Below are positions 8,420 through 63,126 of a stretch of DNA of 64,000 nucleotides, piece after piece (the stretch's first letter is position 1; each line of letters opens with the position of its first letter). The notes beneath the pieces are model-generated. The model saw nothing but the letters and a program-made list of their open reading frames with translations, made no database searches and was not told the DNA's origin. The position numbers and the translations under genes are program-made. Source of the DNA: a virus. Lineage: Duplodnaviria > Heunggongvirae > Uroviricota > Caudoviricetes. The stretch spans positions 32,001 to 96,000 of IMG/VR virus record IMGVR_UViG_646311924_000007. One strand, 5' to 3'.

Positions 8420-8723
8420 GTCGCGAATGCTATCTTTTCGCATCATATTGACCTTTTAATCGTTCAGGCTTATAGTTCCGCCGTCGTAGCAAATTCTGCG
8501 ACCGGGTTTAGCAGCCTGAATGATTGTGCGGACAGCCGCAGATATCCGATATTGCGGTATTTTTGTGTCCGTAAAACCGCGTTACGCCCAAATTATGGTG
8601 GGGCGTGATGGGGAGGCTTCGGCCTGCTGGTTTCACAATCGCCAGTCTGCTAACCCCGTCACGTCCTGCCACCTGTTTAGCAGCGGGTAGCAGGTTGTTA
8701 AACCTGATTGTGAGGCCGTAACT

Positions 8724-9979: not shown

Positions 9980-10057
9980 CAAAAGAAAAAAACCTGCCAG
10001 CAAACTGGCAGGTTTCTGAGCAGATCGACCAACCCGATCTGGATCGAGTCAGAAAAA

Positions 10058-10074
10058 TTTGCTCTAATAAATTT
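10058..10074 (+). promoter_or_regulatory. C1 operator-like site upstream of kilA-repL (Op53 position)
   Basis: TTTGCTCTAATAAATTT, 16/17 to consensus, ~70 bp upstream of kilA start. Confidence 0.65.
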
Positions 10075-10973: not shown

Positions 10974-11819
10974 ATGCTGGCTAAAGTCACTTTCCTGAGC
11001 TGTATAACGATGAGCGATTTTACTTTTTCTGGCTATGAATTGGCCTGCTTTGTAACACACTCCGGTCTATCCCGTAGCGCCGGGCATATCCTGTCGCAAT
11101 GTGCAAATCTCGCGGCAACAACCAGTGAATACTTCATTCACAAGCCTCACCGCCTGATCGCGGCAGAAACTGGTTATAGCCAATCAACCGTCGTTCGTGC
11201 ATTCCGTGAAGCTGTAAACAAAGGAATCCTGTCAGTAGAGATTGTTATCGGCGATCACCGTGAACGTCGCGCTAACCTGTACCGGTTTACACCATCCTTT
11301 TTGGCCTTCGCACAACAAGCAAAAAATGCGCTGATTGAAAGCAAATTAAAGATCTCTTCAGCGGCAACCAAGGTTAAAGCTGTTCTCGCTAAGACATTGG
11401 CTTTATTTAATTTTTTATCCACACCCCCATGTCAAAATGATACCCCCTCCCCCTGTCAGGATGACGTGGCAATAAAGAATAAGAAGTCACAATTTAAAAA
11501 AACAAAAAGATCAGTTTCCGGCGCTGCCGGAACGACCAAACTCAAAAAATTGACTTCATGGATCGCTGAGGCAAAAGCAAAGGCTGACAATCTGCGGTTA
11601 TCCAAAAAACGCGCTCAAAAACATGAGTTCAAGCAGAAAGTAGAGGCGGCAGCGCGGAAATATGCTTACCTGAAGAACAAGCGTTCTCCTGATATTGGCG
11701 GGGTATCAAACTTCGATAATCTGCCGCATTGCATGACGGTAAACGAAGCTCTTAATGCGGTTTTAGCCAAAAATAAAGATAACGAACAATGGGGTATACC
11801 GGCAGGATTCAGAGGGTGA
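10974..11819 (+). CDS. repL: lytic replication protein RepL
   Basis: 281 aa, same length and position as P1 RepL downstream of kilA. No sequence comparison run. Confidence 0.65.
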   Translation: MLAKVTFLSCITMSDFTFSGYELACFVTHSGLSRSAGHILSQCANLAATTSEYFIHKPHRLIAAETGYSQSTVVRAFREAVNKGILSVEIVIGDHRERRANLYRFTPSFLAFAQQAKNALIESKLKISSAATKVKAVLAKTLALFNFLSTPPCQNDTPSPCQDDVAIKNKKSQFKKTKRSVSGAAGTTKLKKLTSWIAEAKAKADNLRLSKKRAQKHEFKQKVEAAARKYAYLKNKRSPDIGGVSNFDNLPHCMTVNEALNAVLAKNKDNEQWGIPAGFRG

Positions 11820-12115
11820 TAGATTGCTCTAATCTGGAGTCACCTGGCGTTTTCAGTTTGAGGTCGGAGATGCAATCTGATTTTTTACAGTTAGCGATCG
11901 CTTTTGCAGGATATGTTTGTATTGGCTTCTGTGTATACATGATCAGCCGAAAAATGCTTGTCGATATCGACCGCAAAGAACAAGCAGAGGAGATCTTAGT
12001 ATGGATTTTCTTTGGCGCGGTCTGGCCATTAGGGATCATGTTTGCTGCAACATTTCTTCTGATGTGGATATTCACCCTTCCAGGTGATTTCTATAGAAAA
12101 AAAGCCAGACATTGA
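11789..12115 (+). CDS. small membrane protein (hypothetical)
   Basis: Hydrophobic segments (LAIAFAGYVCIGFCVYMI, ILVWIFFGAVWPLGIMFAATFLLMWIF); true start may be an internal Met. Confidence 0.35.
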   Translation: MGYTGRIQRVIDCSNLESPGVFSLRSEMQSDFLQLAIAFAGYVCIGFCVYMISRKMLVDIDRKEQAEEILVWIFFGAVWPLGIMFAATFLLMWIFTLPGDFYRKKARH

Positions 12116-12296
12116 TACAATCGTTGCGGGTGCTTGAGGCTATCTGCTTCAGGCATTACCCGAAAAGCAGATAGAAGAAAGCCCCAGATAACATTACGCG
12201 TCCTGCAAGACGCTTAACATTAATCTGAGGCCACATCTATGCTTAGCATACGTAGATTAGCCTCTTACCGACCAAAAGGTCAAGGAGAAGCAGGCT

Positions 12297-12452
12297 ATGA
12301 AGCAGCAAAAAGCGATGTTAATCGCTCTGATCGTCATCTGTTTAACCGTCATTGTGACGGCACTGGTAACGAGGAAAGACCTCTGCGAGGTACGAATCCG
12401 AACCGGCCAGACGGAGGTCACTGTCTTCACAGCCTACGAATCTGAAAGGTAA
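12297..12452 (+). CDS. hok: Hok/Gef-family membrane toxin
   Basis: 51 aa MKQQKAMLIALIVICLTVIVTALVTRKDLCEVRIRTGQTEVTVFTAYESER, close to Hok/SrnB/PndA; overlapping mok-like frame 12239..12445; GC-rich fold-back at 12459-12480. Confidence 0.8.
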   Translation: MKQQKAMLIALIVICLTVIVTALVTRKDLCEVRIRTGQTEVTVFTAYESER

Positions 12453-12531
12453 GAGACCTGGCGGGGAGAGATCCCCGCCACTCTTCGTGTGTCAGGTATC
12501 CTCAATGCACCCTTTCCTCTCCAAATAAAAA

Positions 12532-12547
12532 AGCTCCCGAAGGAGCT
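12532..12547 (-). terminator. rho-independent terminator (hairpin AGCTCC/GGAGCT), probably bidirectional
   Basis: Stem 12532-12537/12542-12547, A-run upstream and T-run downstream; 20 nt past stop of the minus-strand gene ending at 12569. Confidence 0.6.
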
Positions 12548-12568
12548 TTAAAATACAAGGGATTACTA

Positions 12569-13078
12569 TTAATCCCACTCAATCCAGTTGTAGACGATAC
12601 GAAGTGACGGGCGCACAGCGGCAGTCACATCTTCGGTACTAAAGTCGATTGCATCACTGTAGATTTTGCAGTCCAACATTTCAATTGTTGTAGCAGCTTT
12701 TGTCACAGCGTTAACCCCGGAAGATTTGGATTCAGGGGTAGCAGCCATCGTGATATCAACATAGTCCTTCGCCGCAATGCGATCCTTGATGAACTGAAGA
12801 ATATCGCCTTCGATAGTCTCCACGCACTGGACCTGGATTTCCCCAGAGTTTCGAATTGGTCCGTGCTGGTTGAACTTCACACCATTCGGACCATAGTCCT
12901 CCACATCCTCGCGGGTCATTTCAGGAATTTGCGACGTGCGAACCAGTACGCTGATATCTTCATGGCCTGCAACAGTGAGCTGGAATTCAGAAGATACCAG
13001 TCGTTCGCCTTTGGCCGCGTTGGCAGTATAGCGGCCCTTAATAAATTTACGGTTTCCCTTAGTGTTATTGTGCCCCAT
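12569..13078 (-). CDS. probable tail tube protein
   Basis: 169-aa last gene of structural operon; size typical of contractile-tail tube proteins. Context-based. Confidence 0.4.
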   Translation of the reverse strand: MGHNNTKGNRKFIKGRYTANAAKGERLVSSEFQLTVAGHEDISVLVRTSQIPEMTREDVEDYGPNGVKFNQHGPIRNSGEIQVQCVETIEGDILQFIKDRIAAKDYVDITMAATPESKSSGVNAVTKAATTIEMLDCKIYSDAIDFSTEDVTAAVRPSLRIVYNWIEWD

Positions 13079-29991: not shown

Positions 29992-30066
29992 GATGGTGTA
30001 GCTCAGCGGTAGAGCAGTTGGCTGTTAACCAACTGGTCGGTAGTTCGAATCCACCCACCATCGCCA
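29992..30066 (+). tRNA. tRNA-Asn (anticodon GUU)
   Basis: Hand-folded cloverleaf: acceptor GATGGTG/CACCATC, anticodon loop CTGTTAA, T-loop TTCGAAT, discriminator G, encoded CCA. Confidence 0.75.
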
Positions 30067-30071
30067 CTTTA

Positions 30072-30158
30072 GGGGAGTTAGTCCGTAGGGGTAGCGGGGT
30101 AGACTGTAAATCTACTGTCATTGCGACTCGGGTGGTTCGACTCCATCACTCCCCACCA
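30072..30158 (+). tRNA. class-II tRNA-like gene, anticodon GUA (Tyr-like)
   Basis: Acceptor GGGGAGT/ACTCCCC, anticodon arm GTAGA-CTGTAAA-TCTAC identical in loop to E. coli tRNA-Tyr as recalled, long variable arm, encoded CCA; D-arm region slightly irregular. Confidence 0.55.
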
Positions 30159-30162
30159 CATT

Positions 30163-30238
30163 GCCGATTTAGCTCAGTTGGTAGAGCAGTCGCTTTGTAA
30201 GCGAATGGTCAGCGGTTCGATCCCGTTAATCGGCACCA
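30163..30238 (+). tRNA. tRNA-Thr (anticodon UGU)
   Basis: Acceptor GCCGATT/AATCGGC, D-arm TAGCTCAGTTGGTAGAGC, anticodon loop TTTGTAA, T-loop TTCGATC, encoded CCA. Confidence 0.7.
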
Positions 30239-30240
30239 AC

Positions 30241-43279: not shown

Positions 43280-44166
43280 TGCCACTGCTGGATAAGCTGC
43301 GTGAGCAGTACGGGGTCGGACCGGTATGCAGCGAACTGCATATTGCCCCGTCAACGTATTACCATTGTCAGCAACAGCGACATCATCCGGATAAACGCAG
43401 TGCCCGTGCGCAGCACGACGACTGGCTGAAGAGAGAGATACAGCGCGTATACGATGAAAATCATCAGGTGTACGGTGTGCGTAAAGTCTGGCGTCAGTTG
43501 TTACGGGAAGGAATCAGGGTGGCCAGATGTACAGTGGCACGTCTCATGGCGGTTATGGGACTTGCCGGTGTTCTCCGGGGTAAAAAGGTCCGTACGACCA
43601 TCAGCCGGAAAGCCGTTGCCGCAGGCGACCGCGTAAACCGTCAGTTCGTGGCAGAACGACCTGACCAGCTGTGGGTGGCTGATTTTACTTACGTCAGCAC
43701 ATGGCAGGGCTTCGTCTATGTGGCGTTTATCATTGATGTGTTTGCCGGATACATCGTGGGGTGGCGGGTCTCATCGTCTATGGAAACGACATTCGTGCTG
43801 GATGCGCTGGAGCAGGCGTTGTGGGCCCGTCGTCCGTCTGGCACCATCCATCACAGCGATAAAGGCTCTCAGTATGTGTCACTGGCCTATACGGAGCGAC
43901 TAAAAGAAGCCGGATTACTGGCATCAACAGGGAGTACAGGCGACTCGTATGACAACGCGATGGCTGAGAGCATCAATGGTCTTTACAAAGCGGAGGTAAT
44001 ACACCGTAAGAGCTGGAAAAACCGTGCAGAAGTGGAACTGGCCACACTAACGTGGGTGGACTGGTATAACAATCGACGATTGCTGGGAAGGCTGGGCCAT
44101 ACTCCTCCGGCAGAAGCAGAAAAAGCTTATTATGCTTCCATCGGAAACGATGATCTGGCAGCCTGA
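43276..44166 (+). CDS. IS3-family transposase OrfB (DDE)
   Basis: 296 aa with DDE core; overlaps orfA in -1 frame at GGAAAAAATG. Confidence 0.85.
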
Positions 44167-56074: not shown

Positions 56075-56146
56075 GCTGCAAAGTGCTGGTGCTTTATGCC
56101 TGTGAAGTTTATAATTGTGTACACATAACGAGTACACGAGGTGTTT

Positions 56147-56368
56147 ATGCAATCCATTAACTTCCGTACCGCGCGTGGCAACCTTTCTGAAGTGCTCAAC
56201 AATGTTGAAGCCGGGGAAGAGGTTGAAATCACCCGCAGAGGCCGTGAGCCAGCAGTAATTGTCAGCAAGGCTACTTTCGAAGCCTACAAAAAAGCGGCGC
56301 TGGATGCTGAATTTGCATCCCTGTTTGACACCCTGGACTCCACCAACAAGGAACTGGTTAACCGATAA
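56147..56368 (+). CDS. phd: Phd antitoxin
   Basis: 73 aa [39 protein letters not shown]..., P1 Phd as recalled; palindromic GTGTACAC/GAGTACAC sites at 56117-56140 upstream. Confidence 0.9.
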
Positions 56369-56748
56369 TGAGGCATATATCACCGGAAGAACTTATTGCG
56401 CTTCATGATGCGAATATAAACCGCTACGGCGGCCTGCCGGGAATGTCAGATCCGGGTAGGGCAGAGGCCATTATCGGGAGAGTTCAGGCCAGAGTTGCCT
56501 ACGAAGAGATCACCGACCTTTTCGAAGTCTCCGCCACCTACCTGGTGGCTACAGCGAGAGGGCATATATTCAATGATGCCAATAAGCGTACCGCGCTAAA
56601 CAGTGCGCTGTTATTTCTACGCCGTAACGGGGTGCAGGTATTTGATTCACCTGAACTGGCAGACCTTACCGTAGGGGCTGCGACCGGAGAGATATCTGTA
56701 TCTTCTGTCGCCGACACGTTACGTAGATTGTATGGTTCCGCGGAGTAG
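56368..56748 (+). CDS. doc: Doc toxin (Fic-family kinase)
   Basis: 126 aa, overlaps phd stop; Fic motif region [15 protein letters not shown]. Confidence 0.9.
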
Positions 56749-61327: not shown

Positions 61328-61645
61328 TGTTTTTTAACTACCGATGTTACATTGAGCCTGACCTCTTGCGCCTTGAGGCATTTTCGGTTTATGCTTATCA
61401 GGCACCTCATTAAAACGGGTGCCGGGATTGGCCTCCCGCTTAAGTCTAAGGCGATACAGACGCCGCTCGCGTCTTTTTTTGTATCGGCGTACACGCACAC
61501 CTCTACAATGGTGGGCTGTATGGGGCTACCTTCGGGTAGGCTGGTTACCTTGGACGCCAGTAAGGCCAACTCCGTACAGTCCACCGCCAGCAAGATTGGT
61601 CTCTTCTGCGGTGGTTACATACCAACGTCTAAGGAGGCTGCCAAT

Positions 61646-61912: not shown

Positions 61913-62803
61913 TCAGGCTGCCAGATCATCGTTTCCGATGGAAGCATAATAAGCTTTTTCTGCTTCTGCCGGAGGAGTATGGCCCAGCCTTCCCAGCAAT
62001 CGTCGATTGTTATACCAGTCCACCCACGTTAGTGTGGCCAGTTCCACTTCTGCACGGTTTTTCCAGCTCTTACGGTGTATTACCTCCGCTTTGTAAAGAC
62101 CATTGATGCTCTCAGCCATCGCGTTGTCATACGAGTCGCCTGTACTCCCTGTTGATGCCAGTAATCCGGCTTCTTTTAGTCGCTCCGTATAGGCCAGTGA
62201 CACATACTGAGAGCCTTTATCGCTGTGATGGATGGTGCCAGACGGACGACGGGCCCACAACGCCTGCTCCAGCGCATCCAGCACGAATGTCGTTTCCATA
62301 GACGATGAGACCCGCCACCCCACGATGTATCCGGCAAACACATCAATGATAAACGCCACATAGACGAAGCCCTGCCATGTGCTGACGTAAGTAAAATCAG
62401 CCACCCACAGCTGGTCAGGTCGTTCTGCCACGAACTGACGGTTTACGCGGTCGCCTGCGGCAACGGCTTTCCGGCTGATGGTCGTACGGACCTTTTTACC
62501 CCGGAGAACACCGGCAAGTCCCATAACCGCCATGAGACGTGCCACTGTACATCTGGCCACCCTGATTCCTTCCCGTAACAACTGACGCCAGACTTTACGC
62601 ACACCGTACACCTGATGATTTTCATCGTATACGCGCTGTATCTCTCTCTTCAGCCAGTCGTCGTGCTGCGCACGGGCACTGCGTTTATCCGGATGATGTC
62701 GCTGTTGCTGACAATGGTAATACGTTGACGGGGCAATATGCAGTTCGCTGCATACCGGTCCGACCCCGTACTGCTCACGCAGCTTATCCAGCAGTGGCAT
62801 CAT
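61913..62803 (-). CDS. IS3-family transposase OrfB (copy 2)
   Basis: Translation identical to copy 1 OrfB. Confidence 0.85.
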
Positions 62804-63126
62804 TTTTTCCAGAGGCGGTCGAACTCCGCCTTCGCAAAATAAGCGGAAGCCTGGCGAAGGATATCGTTACTGCGGCGCAGTTCACGATTTTCACGTTCCA
62901 GCTCTTTCAGACGCTGACGTTCAGCGCTGGTGAGCCCACCATCACCGCCCCCGGTATCCCGCTCATGCTGGCGAACCCAGACACGCAGAGTCTCCGGCGT
63001 ACAGCCAATCTTTGGGGCAATGGAACAAATTGCCGCCCACTGTGAGTCATATTCATCCTGACTTTCCAGAACCATACGAATCGCCCGCTGACGGACTTCG
63101 GGGGAAAAACGAGTATTTTTAGTCAT
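62800..63126 (-). CDS. IS3-family transposase OrfA (copy 2)
   Basis: Translation identical to copy 1 OrfA. Confidence 0.85.

Follow-up and report, generated by a model that had tools for sequence, protein, structure and literature searches.

The 64,000-nucleotide (nt) stretch of DNA considered here (the window; positions 32,001 to 96,000 of the IMG/VR virus record IMGVR_UViG_646311924_000007) belongs to a P1-like phage-plasmid, and between its genes repL and bplB it carries an intact hok/mok/sok module. That this module is genuine and complete is very well supported. Judged on the level of sequence and predicted structure, it is highly probable that positions 12094-12552 make up a complete type I toxin-antitoxin cassette of the hokW/hokD subgroup, with the mechanism described for plasmid R1. 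The cassette would be the second system of this kind on the element, next to phd-doc.

Toxin gene, leader and antisense RNA

An earlier note on this DNA had claimed a 51-amino-acid (aa) Hok toxin with an overlapping mok-like frame, placed between repL and a terminator, and each of these claims was borne out (Table 1). The toxin, MKQQKAMLIALIVICLTVIVTALVTRKDLCEVRIRTGQTEVTVFTAYESER, covers the full profile (positions 1-42) of the Pfam family PF01848 HOK_GEF with an E-value of 2.4e-22 and 78.7 bits (cutoff 22), and it matches PHROG 251, 'MokW-like host killing', at 4.9e-32. As a check, the earlier note had proposed an Rfam scan. When the whole 64 kb were scanned, the model RF01794 'sok' was matched once, in full length (model positions 1-157), with 114.8 bits (gathering score 59) and an E-value of 2.2e-25, which is far beyond chance. 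Because the last model positions align to the hok AUG, the matched stretch is the leader of the hok mRNA, and Sok is the complement of a part of it.

The position of the predicted Sok RNA was transferred from the annotated sokW of phage 933W through alignment A1. In the predicted fold (-29.1 kcal/mol, z = -4.8) the first 15 nt are unpaired and complementary to 12233-12247, a stretch that covers the mok AUG; a long hairpin comes next, and the RNA ends in a U-rich tail. The earlier note had expected Sok on the minus strand around 12200-12290; the strand was right, and the position had to be changed to that given in Table 1. The predicted Sok promoter aligns with TTGCGC/TATCCT of the R1-type locus and with TTGCCT/TAACCT of 933W, and the primers YO-421/422 of Takada et al. 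(PMC8621323) replace exactly this -10 hexamer, giving a promoter-less sokW. A scan for the sigma-70 consensus did not detect the Sok promoter, and the earlier note had missed it as well, because the -10 hexamer matches three of six consensus positions; it was defined by the alignment to R1 and 933W and by the published promoter mutant. The putative hok promoter was found by the consensus scan; it ends 7 nt before 12128, and a comparable promoter is placed at the same position in 933W (A1). The start of hok transcription at about 12128 was taken from position 1 of the Rfam model. As far as sequence can tell, the locus appears to contain the antisense Sok gene expected of the hok/sok family.

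Relative to hok, mok is read in the +1 frame: its ATG lies 58 nt upstream of the hok ATG, and it closes 7 nt short of the end of the hok open reading frame (ORF). An upstream ATG at the same distance is conserved in the near-identical contigs L005 and L006, in the more distant relatives L025 and L027 and in the R1-type locus; mok has 68 aa in the window, 70 aa in R1 and 55-56 aa in L025 and L027. The spacing is 57 nt in 933W, Photorhabdus and most other relatives (alignment A5, columns 133-195; window 12239-12299). At 58 nt mok is therefore an overlapping +1 frame, whereas at 57 nt 'Mok' is an in-frame, N-terminally extended Hok, and an insertion or deletion of 1 nt toggles between the two states (GGTCAAGG in the window, GG-CAAGG in 933W). 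This is a small departure from the closest tested homologue, with no effect on family membership.

Table 1. Features of the hok/mok/sok locus, its neighbours and the phd-doc module (window coordinates)
Feature	Position	Strand	Details
Putative hok promoter	12094-12121	+	-35 TAGAAA (12094-12099), 16-nt spacer with extended TG, -10 TACAAT (12116-12121)
Predicted full-length hok mRNA	12128-12552	+	5' end at about 12128; 3' end inferred
hok mRNA leader	12128-12302	+	RF01794 match
tac, 5' translational-activator box	12128-12139	+	GGGTGCTTGAGG (RNA GGGUGCUUGAGG, first 12 nt); pairs with fbi in the minimum free energy structure
Sok antisense RNA, predicted	12247 to about 12177	-	about 71 nt; from sokW of 933W
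mok frame	12239-12445	+	68 aa, ATG start; Shine-Dalgarno sequence GAGG at 12227-12230, 8 nt upstream
Sok promoter, predicted	12254-12283	-	-35 TTGACC (12283-12278), 18-nt spacer, -10 TAATCT (12259-12254)
hok toxin gene	12297-12452	+	51 aa, ATG...TAA; Shine-Dalgarno sequence AAGGAG at 12282-12287
GC-rich hairpin, 3' untranslated region	12460-12479	+	GGCGGGG-AGAGAT-CCCCGCC; in the minimum free energy structure; helix 19 in the covariation count
3' inhibitory region	12491-12512	+	12491-12499 and fbi
fbi, fold-back-inhibition element	12500-12512	+	CCTCAATGCACCC (RNA CCUCAAUGCACCC); pairs with tac
Bidirectional terminator hairpin	12530-12549	both	downstream of bplB; P1 backbone; strong on -, short U run on +
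repL	10974-11819	+	left neighbour of the hok locus
81-aa predicted multi-pass membrane protein	11870-12115	+	phrog_3772, 3e-54, function not assigned; same coding sequence from PGAP
bplB, tail-tube/baseplate gene	12569-13078	-	right neighbour of the hok locus
Other ATTGCTCTAAT cores	25011, 29310, 44710, 44765, 46852, 58005		six sites
phd	56147-56368	+	or GTG start at 56141; PF02604, 3.1e-13
doc	56368-56748	+	PF02661, 2e-9

Fold of the hok mRNA and its conservation

The minimum free energy (MFE) structure of the predicted full-length mRNA has -168.7 kcal/mol (z = -8.75 against shuffles). In this structure the two ends of the RNA are joined by the tac-fbi duplex (-21 kcal/mol), and the segment 12491-12499 next to fbi is paired with 12239-12247, that is with the mok AUG and the stretch targeted by Sok. 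As modelled, the closed fold is the architecture described for the hok mRNA of R1, which would be unreachable by ribosomes and by Sok. The mRNA should extend at least to the end of fbi (12512) and probably ends at the terminator shared with the phage backbone. The GC-rich hairpin, by analogy with R1, may be the barrier which sets the processed 3' end. A GC-rich 3' fold-back had been seen in the earlier note as well; the hairpin itself holds, but it is not the fold-back-inhibition element, as hairpin and fbi are two distinct features. If the RNA is cut just after the hairpin, its 5' end is predicted to refold into a local hairpin, to be read as a qualitative sign of refolding only.

The conservation of this fold was followed in 47 hok loci taken from one-genome-per-species contigs, in each of which tac and its best 3' partner were located. 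The tac-fbi duplex is present in nearly every complete locus among them, and the differences between loci are compensatory: where Escherichia and Kluyvera have GGGUGC/GCACCC, Photorhabdus and Pantoea have GGGCGC/GCGCCC; GAGG/CCUC, GAGA/UCUC and GAAG/CUUC replace one another, and GGCGC/GCGCC is found in R1. The MFE structure of the window was then mapped on alignment A5 of 30 distinct mRNAs (Escherichia, Kluyvera, Photorhabdus, Pantoea, Citrobacter and R1). The share of paired cells was 86.3%, against 39-44% in controls with the 3' partners slid by 1-3 columns, a comparison that is inflated because the structure derives from one member of the alignment. The number of pairs changed on both sides is less prone to this inflation, and it reached 44, against 15-23 in the slid controls; the covariation score was 0.172 against 0.06-0.08. 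On four of five measures none of 500 column shuffles attained the observed value.

All cells of the outer tac-fbi helix (100%) are paired, and one of its positions is U:A in 18, C:G in 11 and U:G in 1 of the 30 sequences. Helix 2 looks worse (81% paired) because in the MAFFT alignment sequences with and without a bulge are offset by one column in the inner half of fbi; the tac-fbi duplexes drawn sequence by sequence are better than this figure. Compensatory changes were also noticed in the columns of the Sok hairpin (helix 6), several of them swaps between A:U and G:C.

Relation to known hok loci and to phd-doc

The closest tested relative is hokW-sokW of the Stx2 prophage Sp5/phage 933W (AF125520), which shows 88% nucleotide identity to the window from the hok -10 to fbi (A1), with 47 of the 51 residues of HokW (92%) identical to those of the Hok described here. 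The two cassettes agree in tac, the GC hairpin and fbi as well as in the position of Sok, its 71-nt length and the position of its promoter, and both are carried by a temperate phage. In the 933W record sokW, mokW and hokW are annotated, and it was shown experimentally that they form a toxin with an antisense antitoxin that requires RNase III, Hfq and a promoter of its own (Takada et al. 2021, PMC8621323). The differences concern the mok frame (MokW of 933W is in frame with hok, mok of the window is not, as in R1), the bulged base of fbi (U versus C between the window and 933W) and the host element, which is a plasmid prophage in the window and an integrated lambdoid prophage in 933W, with unrelated flanking genes.

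The R1 hok/sok locus (parB) is the archetype of the family. It has the same tac-fbi long-range pairing, an out-of-frame mok 58 nt before hok, a Sok that is antisense to the mok start and has its promoter within the leader, and a GC hairpin downstream of hok; the change from its GGCGC/GCGCC to GGGUGC/GCACCC is compensatory and keeps the pairing. Only conserved blocks of R1 can be aligned, however (A2; mean column identity of the three-way alignment 74%), and its Hok is 44% identical to HokW, the close relative of the window Hok. Compared to R1, the first hairpin of the leader is shorter in the window and the Sok hairpin has an extra extension; the terminator, unlike that of R1, is supplied by the P1 backbone. 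The same toxin subfamily includes the chromosomal E. coli loci hokA-E, and the name given to the window gene by PGAP is hokD. Insertion sequences (IS) IS186 and IS150 reportedly adjoin several chromosomal hok genes of K-12 and have inactivated several of them. In contrast to such loci, the window copy is uninterrupted by IS and has all of its regulatory elements.

The phd-doc system known from P1 is a plasmid-addiction module of an unrelated type (type II: the antitoxin is a protein and the toxin a kinase of the Fic family), which has no common sequence or mechanism with hok/sok. The earlier note had located it at 56147-56748 and had concluded that the element carries two unrelated addiction modules. 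Adjacent, overlapping genes for a PhdYeFM antitoxin and a Fic/DOC toxin were indeed found there, and the conclusion that hok/sok and phd-doc are two unrelated addiction-type modules of one element is supported. Identical ALIL frameshift pseudoknots (121.5 bits each) were found in inverted orientation at 43234-43350 (+) and 62729-62845 (-), and thus two inverted copies of one IS3-family element are expected about 19.5 kb apart; the segment bracketed by them, phd-doc included, may be invertible or form a composite transposon.

The segment that replaces P1 genes

The hok region is 99-100% identical to that of many non-mobilizable E. coli plasmids of about 90-100 kb, and the same identity is shared with the phages vB_EcoM-Ro157c2YLVW and phi456 and the 'P1' isolates MH422554 and MH445380. 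Reference P1 (NC_005856) and P7 have repL in common with the window and diverge afterwards. It was correct in the earlier note that hok is foreign to reference P1, in which the interval between repL and bplB is occupied by rlfA, rlfB and pmgF (about 1.8 kb). The window is devoid of the order repL-rlfA-rlfB-pmgF-bplB and has an 81-aa ORF and hok/sok in this interval. The homology to P1 breaks off at about 11834 on the left and resumes at about 12526 on the right, with a replacement of about 690 bp between these points. From the right breakpoint it follows that the bplB terminator is backbone sequence, and the same terminator is present in reference P1 (alignment A4).

The left breakpoint lies directly after ATTGCTCTAAT (11823-11833), the conserved half of the C1 operator (Op55/Orlf) after P1 repL, which precedes the 81-aa ORF here instead of rlfA. 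This operator core has seven copies in the window, against 0.08 expected. The 81-aa ORF makes up the left part of the replacement segment; its occurrence is limited to P1-like phages and plasmids, it is not part of the lambdoid-phage hok cassette, and SJ46 holds a 44%-identical homologue of its product at the same place. The 3' end of the ORF contains the -35 of hok, and its stop codon abuts the -10. Homology to the lambdoid and Rac-type hok loci extends from about 12116 to just past fbi. In a variant plasmid, NZ_CP059910 (locus L054, 2501-3300), the promoter, the leader and the Sok stretch are kept (the equivalent of window 12100-12262), and past the equivalent of 12262 mok and hok are replaced by a 198-aa hypothetical ORF on the minus strand. 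The gap between repL and bplB holds cargo that varies among P1-like elements.

Two further observations concern other parts of the window. Besides the expected immI C4 RNA (8591-8676) with its a1/b1 targets (8470-8522; all within 8470-8676, +), a second C4-type antisense RNA (75.9 bits) was found directly after an isrK-like small RNA (60.8 bits) at 61402-61591 (+), which suggests a second antirepressor-control module. Four tRNA genes lie at 29992-32259 (+): Asn-GTT, an 87-nt Tyr-GTA, Thr-TGT and a tRNA with the anticodon CAT. Reference P1 presumably has three tRNA genes, and the Tyr gene of the window may be extra.

Prevalence and IS186 insertions

The cassette is already known, as the same sequence is annotated as hokD or MokW in public P1-like records: in hundreds of P1-like plasmids the coding sequence carries the PGAP name 'type I toxin-antitoxin system toxin HokD', and in MH422554 it is called MokW. 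The substitution at this place was described by Venturini et al. 2019, with an 'antibacterial toxin' mentioned in passing. In PLSDB, repL was found in 515 records and the P1-type rlfA-rlfB-pmgF block in 101, while the hok region was matched in 661. With a 171-nt query spanning the insertion site, 216 records are intact across the hok 3' untranslated region; a 901-nt query is ambiguous for counts of this kind because loci split by IS186 still cover more than 80% of it. Among natural P1-like plasmids the hok arrangement is much commoner than that of reference P1. At least 80% of the 691-bp segment is present in 229 of 5,426 complete E. coli genomes (about 4%), and a hokD-like copy with at least 80% nucleotide identity, mostly chromosomal, in 4,738 of them (87%), with a median of 2 and a maximum of 9 copies per genome.

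It is known that IS186 prefers GC-rich palindromic targets. Read on the opposite strand, the direct repeat of IS186B given by Venturini et al. 2019, GGATCTCTCC, matches window 12465-12474, where the GC hairpin has its loop and the inner part of its stem. In CP057381 (L053, 2860-4220) an element of the IS4 family (IS186/IS421) is inserted in this hairpin with duplication of 12464-12475, by which hok is split from fbi. In an evenly spaced sample of 40 rows out of 636 records matching the 171-nt probe, 14 were intact, 13 were split at the GC hairpin and 10 had the backbone terminator only; these proportions are approximate and not a census. Some other P1-like plasmids have no hok ORF altogether. 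By analogy, the decay route of the chromosomal hok genes of K-12 appears to operate in sister P1-like plasmids too.

Proposed mechanism and alternative explanations

Processing, translational coupling and killing are taken from R1 hok/sok and Sp5 hokW-sokW, by analogy with which the cassette would act as follows. The hok mRNA, made from a weak constitutive promoter, would be stable and about 390-425 nt long, with tac paired to fbi, and the mok start and Sok target to the adjacent 3' segment, so that the full-length RNA would be neither translated nor bound by Sok. Slow trimming of the 3' end to the GC hairpin would strip off these pairing partners and the RNA would refold; mok could then be translated, and hok through translational coupling to mok. 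The short-lived Sok of about 71 nt, transcribed from its own promoter inside the mok/hok leader, would pair over the mok Shine-Dalgarno sequence and start codon and bring about cleavage by RNase III. Plasmid-free cells would exhaust Sok first, and the membrane toxin would kill them (post-segregational killing). By default, the presumed benefit to the P1-like element is such killing added to that of phd-doc, with hok/sok as a second stabilising system.

Several points weigh against this reading. The plus-strand terminator after fbi, at which the mRNA would probably end, is weak, and the fold of the truncated RNA does not reproduce in detail the tac-ucb helix of Rfam and R1. The NCBIfam Hok subfamily match is sub-threshold (49.5 against a curated cutoff of 73), and the PADLOC models gave no match for the locus; given the Pfam, PHROG and Rfam scores, these two outcomes carry no weight on family membership. 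Searches of the literature for hok in P1-like, IncY or phage-plasmid elements gave no dedicated study or functional test, and what they gave instead was the passing remark of Venturini et al. 2019 and papers on hok in other plasmids. From the frequent disruption by IS186 it follows that the module is dispensable for the maintenance of P1-like plasmids. Finally, the closest tested relative, hokW-sokW, is assigned to phage release and not to stabilisation.

The last point leads to a different explanation, that the cassette serves mainly the lytic cycle, as in Sp5: Sok would be lost on induction, and membrane damage by Hok would advance lysis and release. In Sp5, sokW vanishes after mitomycin C while HokW appears in a RecA-dependent manner (PMC8621323), and phage release is halved when the hokW-sokW locus is missing. 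The arrangement in the window is suggestive as well, since PkilA/Op53 (10042-10074, one mismatch to P1), kilA, repL and the 81-aa ORF directly precede hok in the same orientation, with the C1 operator core at 11823-11833. Between the PkilA operon and hok the plus strand has only three weak 5-bp hairpins. In this co-orientation, with no strong plus-strand terminator in between, coupling to induction is conceivable: transcription reading through from the C1-repressed kilA-repL operon could run into that of sok and act as the trigger. The argument is, however, purely positional, P1 and P7 lyse efficiently without hok, and a lytic role is compatible with post-segregational killing, so this explanation is considered somewhat unlikely. 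The stronger claim, that Hok expression in P1-like phage-plasmids is wired to the lysis-lysogeny switch, is rather improbable. If it were true, derepression would transcribe through the sok promoter from the opposite direction, deplete Sok and free Hok; Hok would act early in lysis or in its timing, or would serve as a safeguard by eliminating cells with an aborted induction, and the recurrent IS186 insertions uncoupling hok from fbi would be selected escapes from its cost.

It is likewise doubtful that the module acts by abortive infection or exclusion, in which an infecting phage would stop transcription in the host and the cell would die from Hok once the labile Sok is gone, although systems of the Mok_Hok_Sok kind are counted as defence systems in DefenseFinder-based surveys and the place of the cassette is a variable cargo spot. 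R1 hok/sok on a high-copy plasmid reportedly lowered T4 plating and plaque size, but the effect was modest and P1-like plasmids are low-copy; the missing PADLOC match speaks against this role too. Phage exclusion would be compatible with the other proposed roles. Least probable of all is a selfish or decaying passenger, intact but effectively silent, as most chromosomal hok loci of K-12 are. This could be argued from IS186 parting hok from fbi in about one in three of the plasmid records sampled, from other plasmids without the hok ORF, and from hokD-like sequences in most complete E. coli genomes. In the window, however, none of the elements is broken or out of register, be it the two promoters, tac, fbi, the mok and hok frames or the Sok and GC hairpins; the fold is kept by compensatory changes, and hundreds of plasmids share the sequence with 99-100% conservation. 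A complete hok/mok/sok cassette, with post-segregational killing as its default role, is the preferred explanation.

Significance

The family is a textbook one and the sequence was already annotated, hence the finding has little weight as a discovery. Public records list the toxin coding sequence only, and the coordinates of Sok, the Sok promoter, mok, tac and fbi can be transferred to them. The laboratory P1 turns out to be atypical: the 81-aa ORF with hok, counted both intact and split by IS186, is far more frequent in natural P1-like plasmids than rlfA-rlfB-pmgF. Some of these clinically relevant phage-plasmids carry resistance genes, and their intact and IS186-split copies constitute a natural experiment on a possible contribution of hok/sok to the stability, lysis timing or phage exclusion of P1-like elements.

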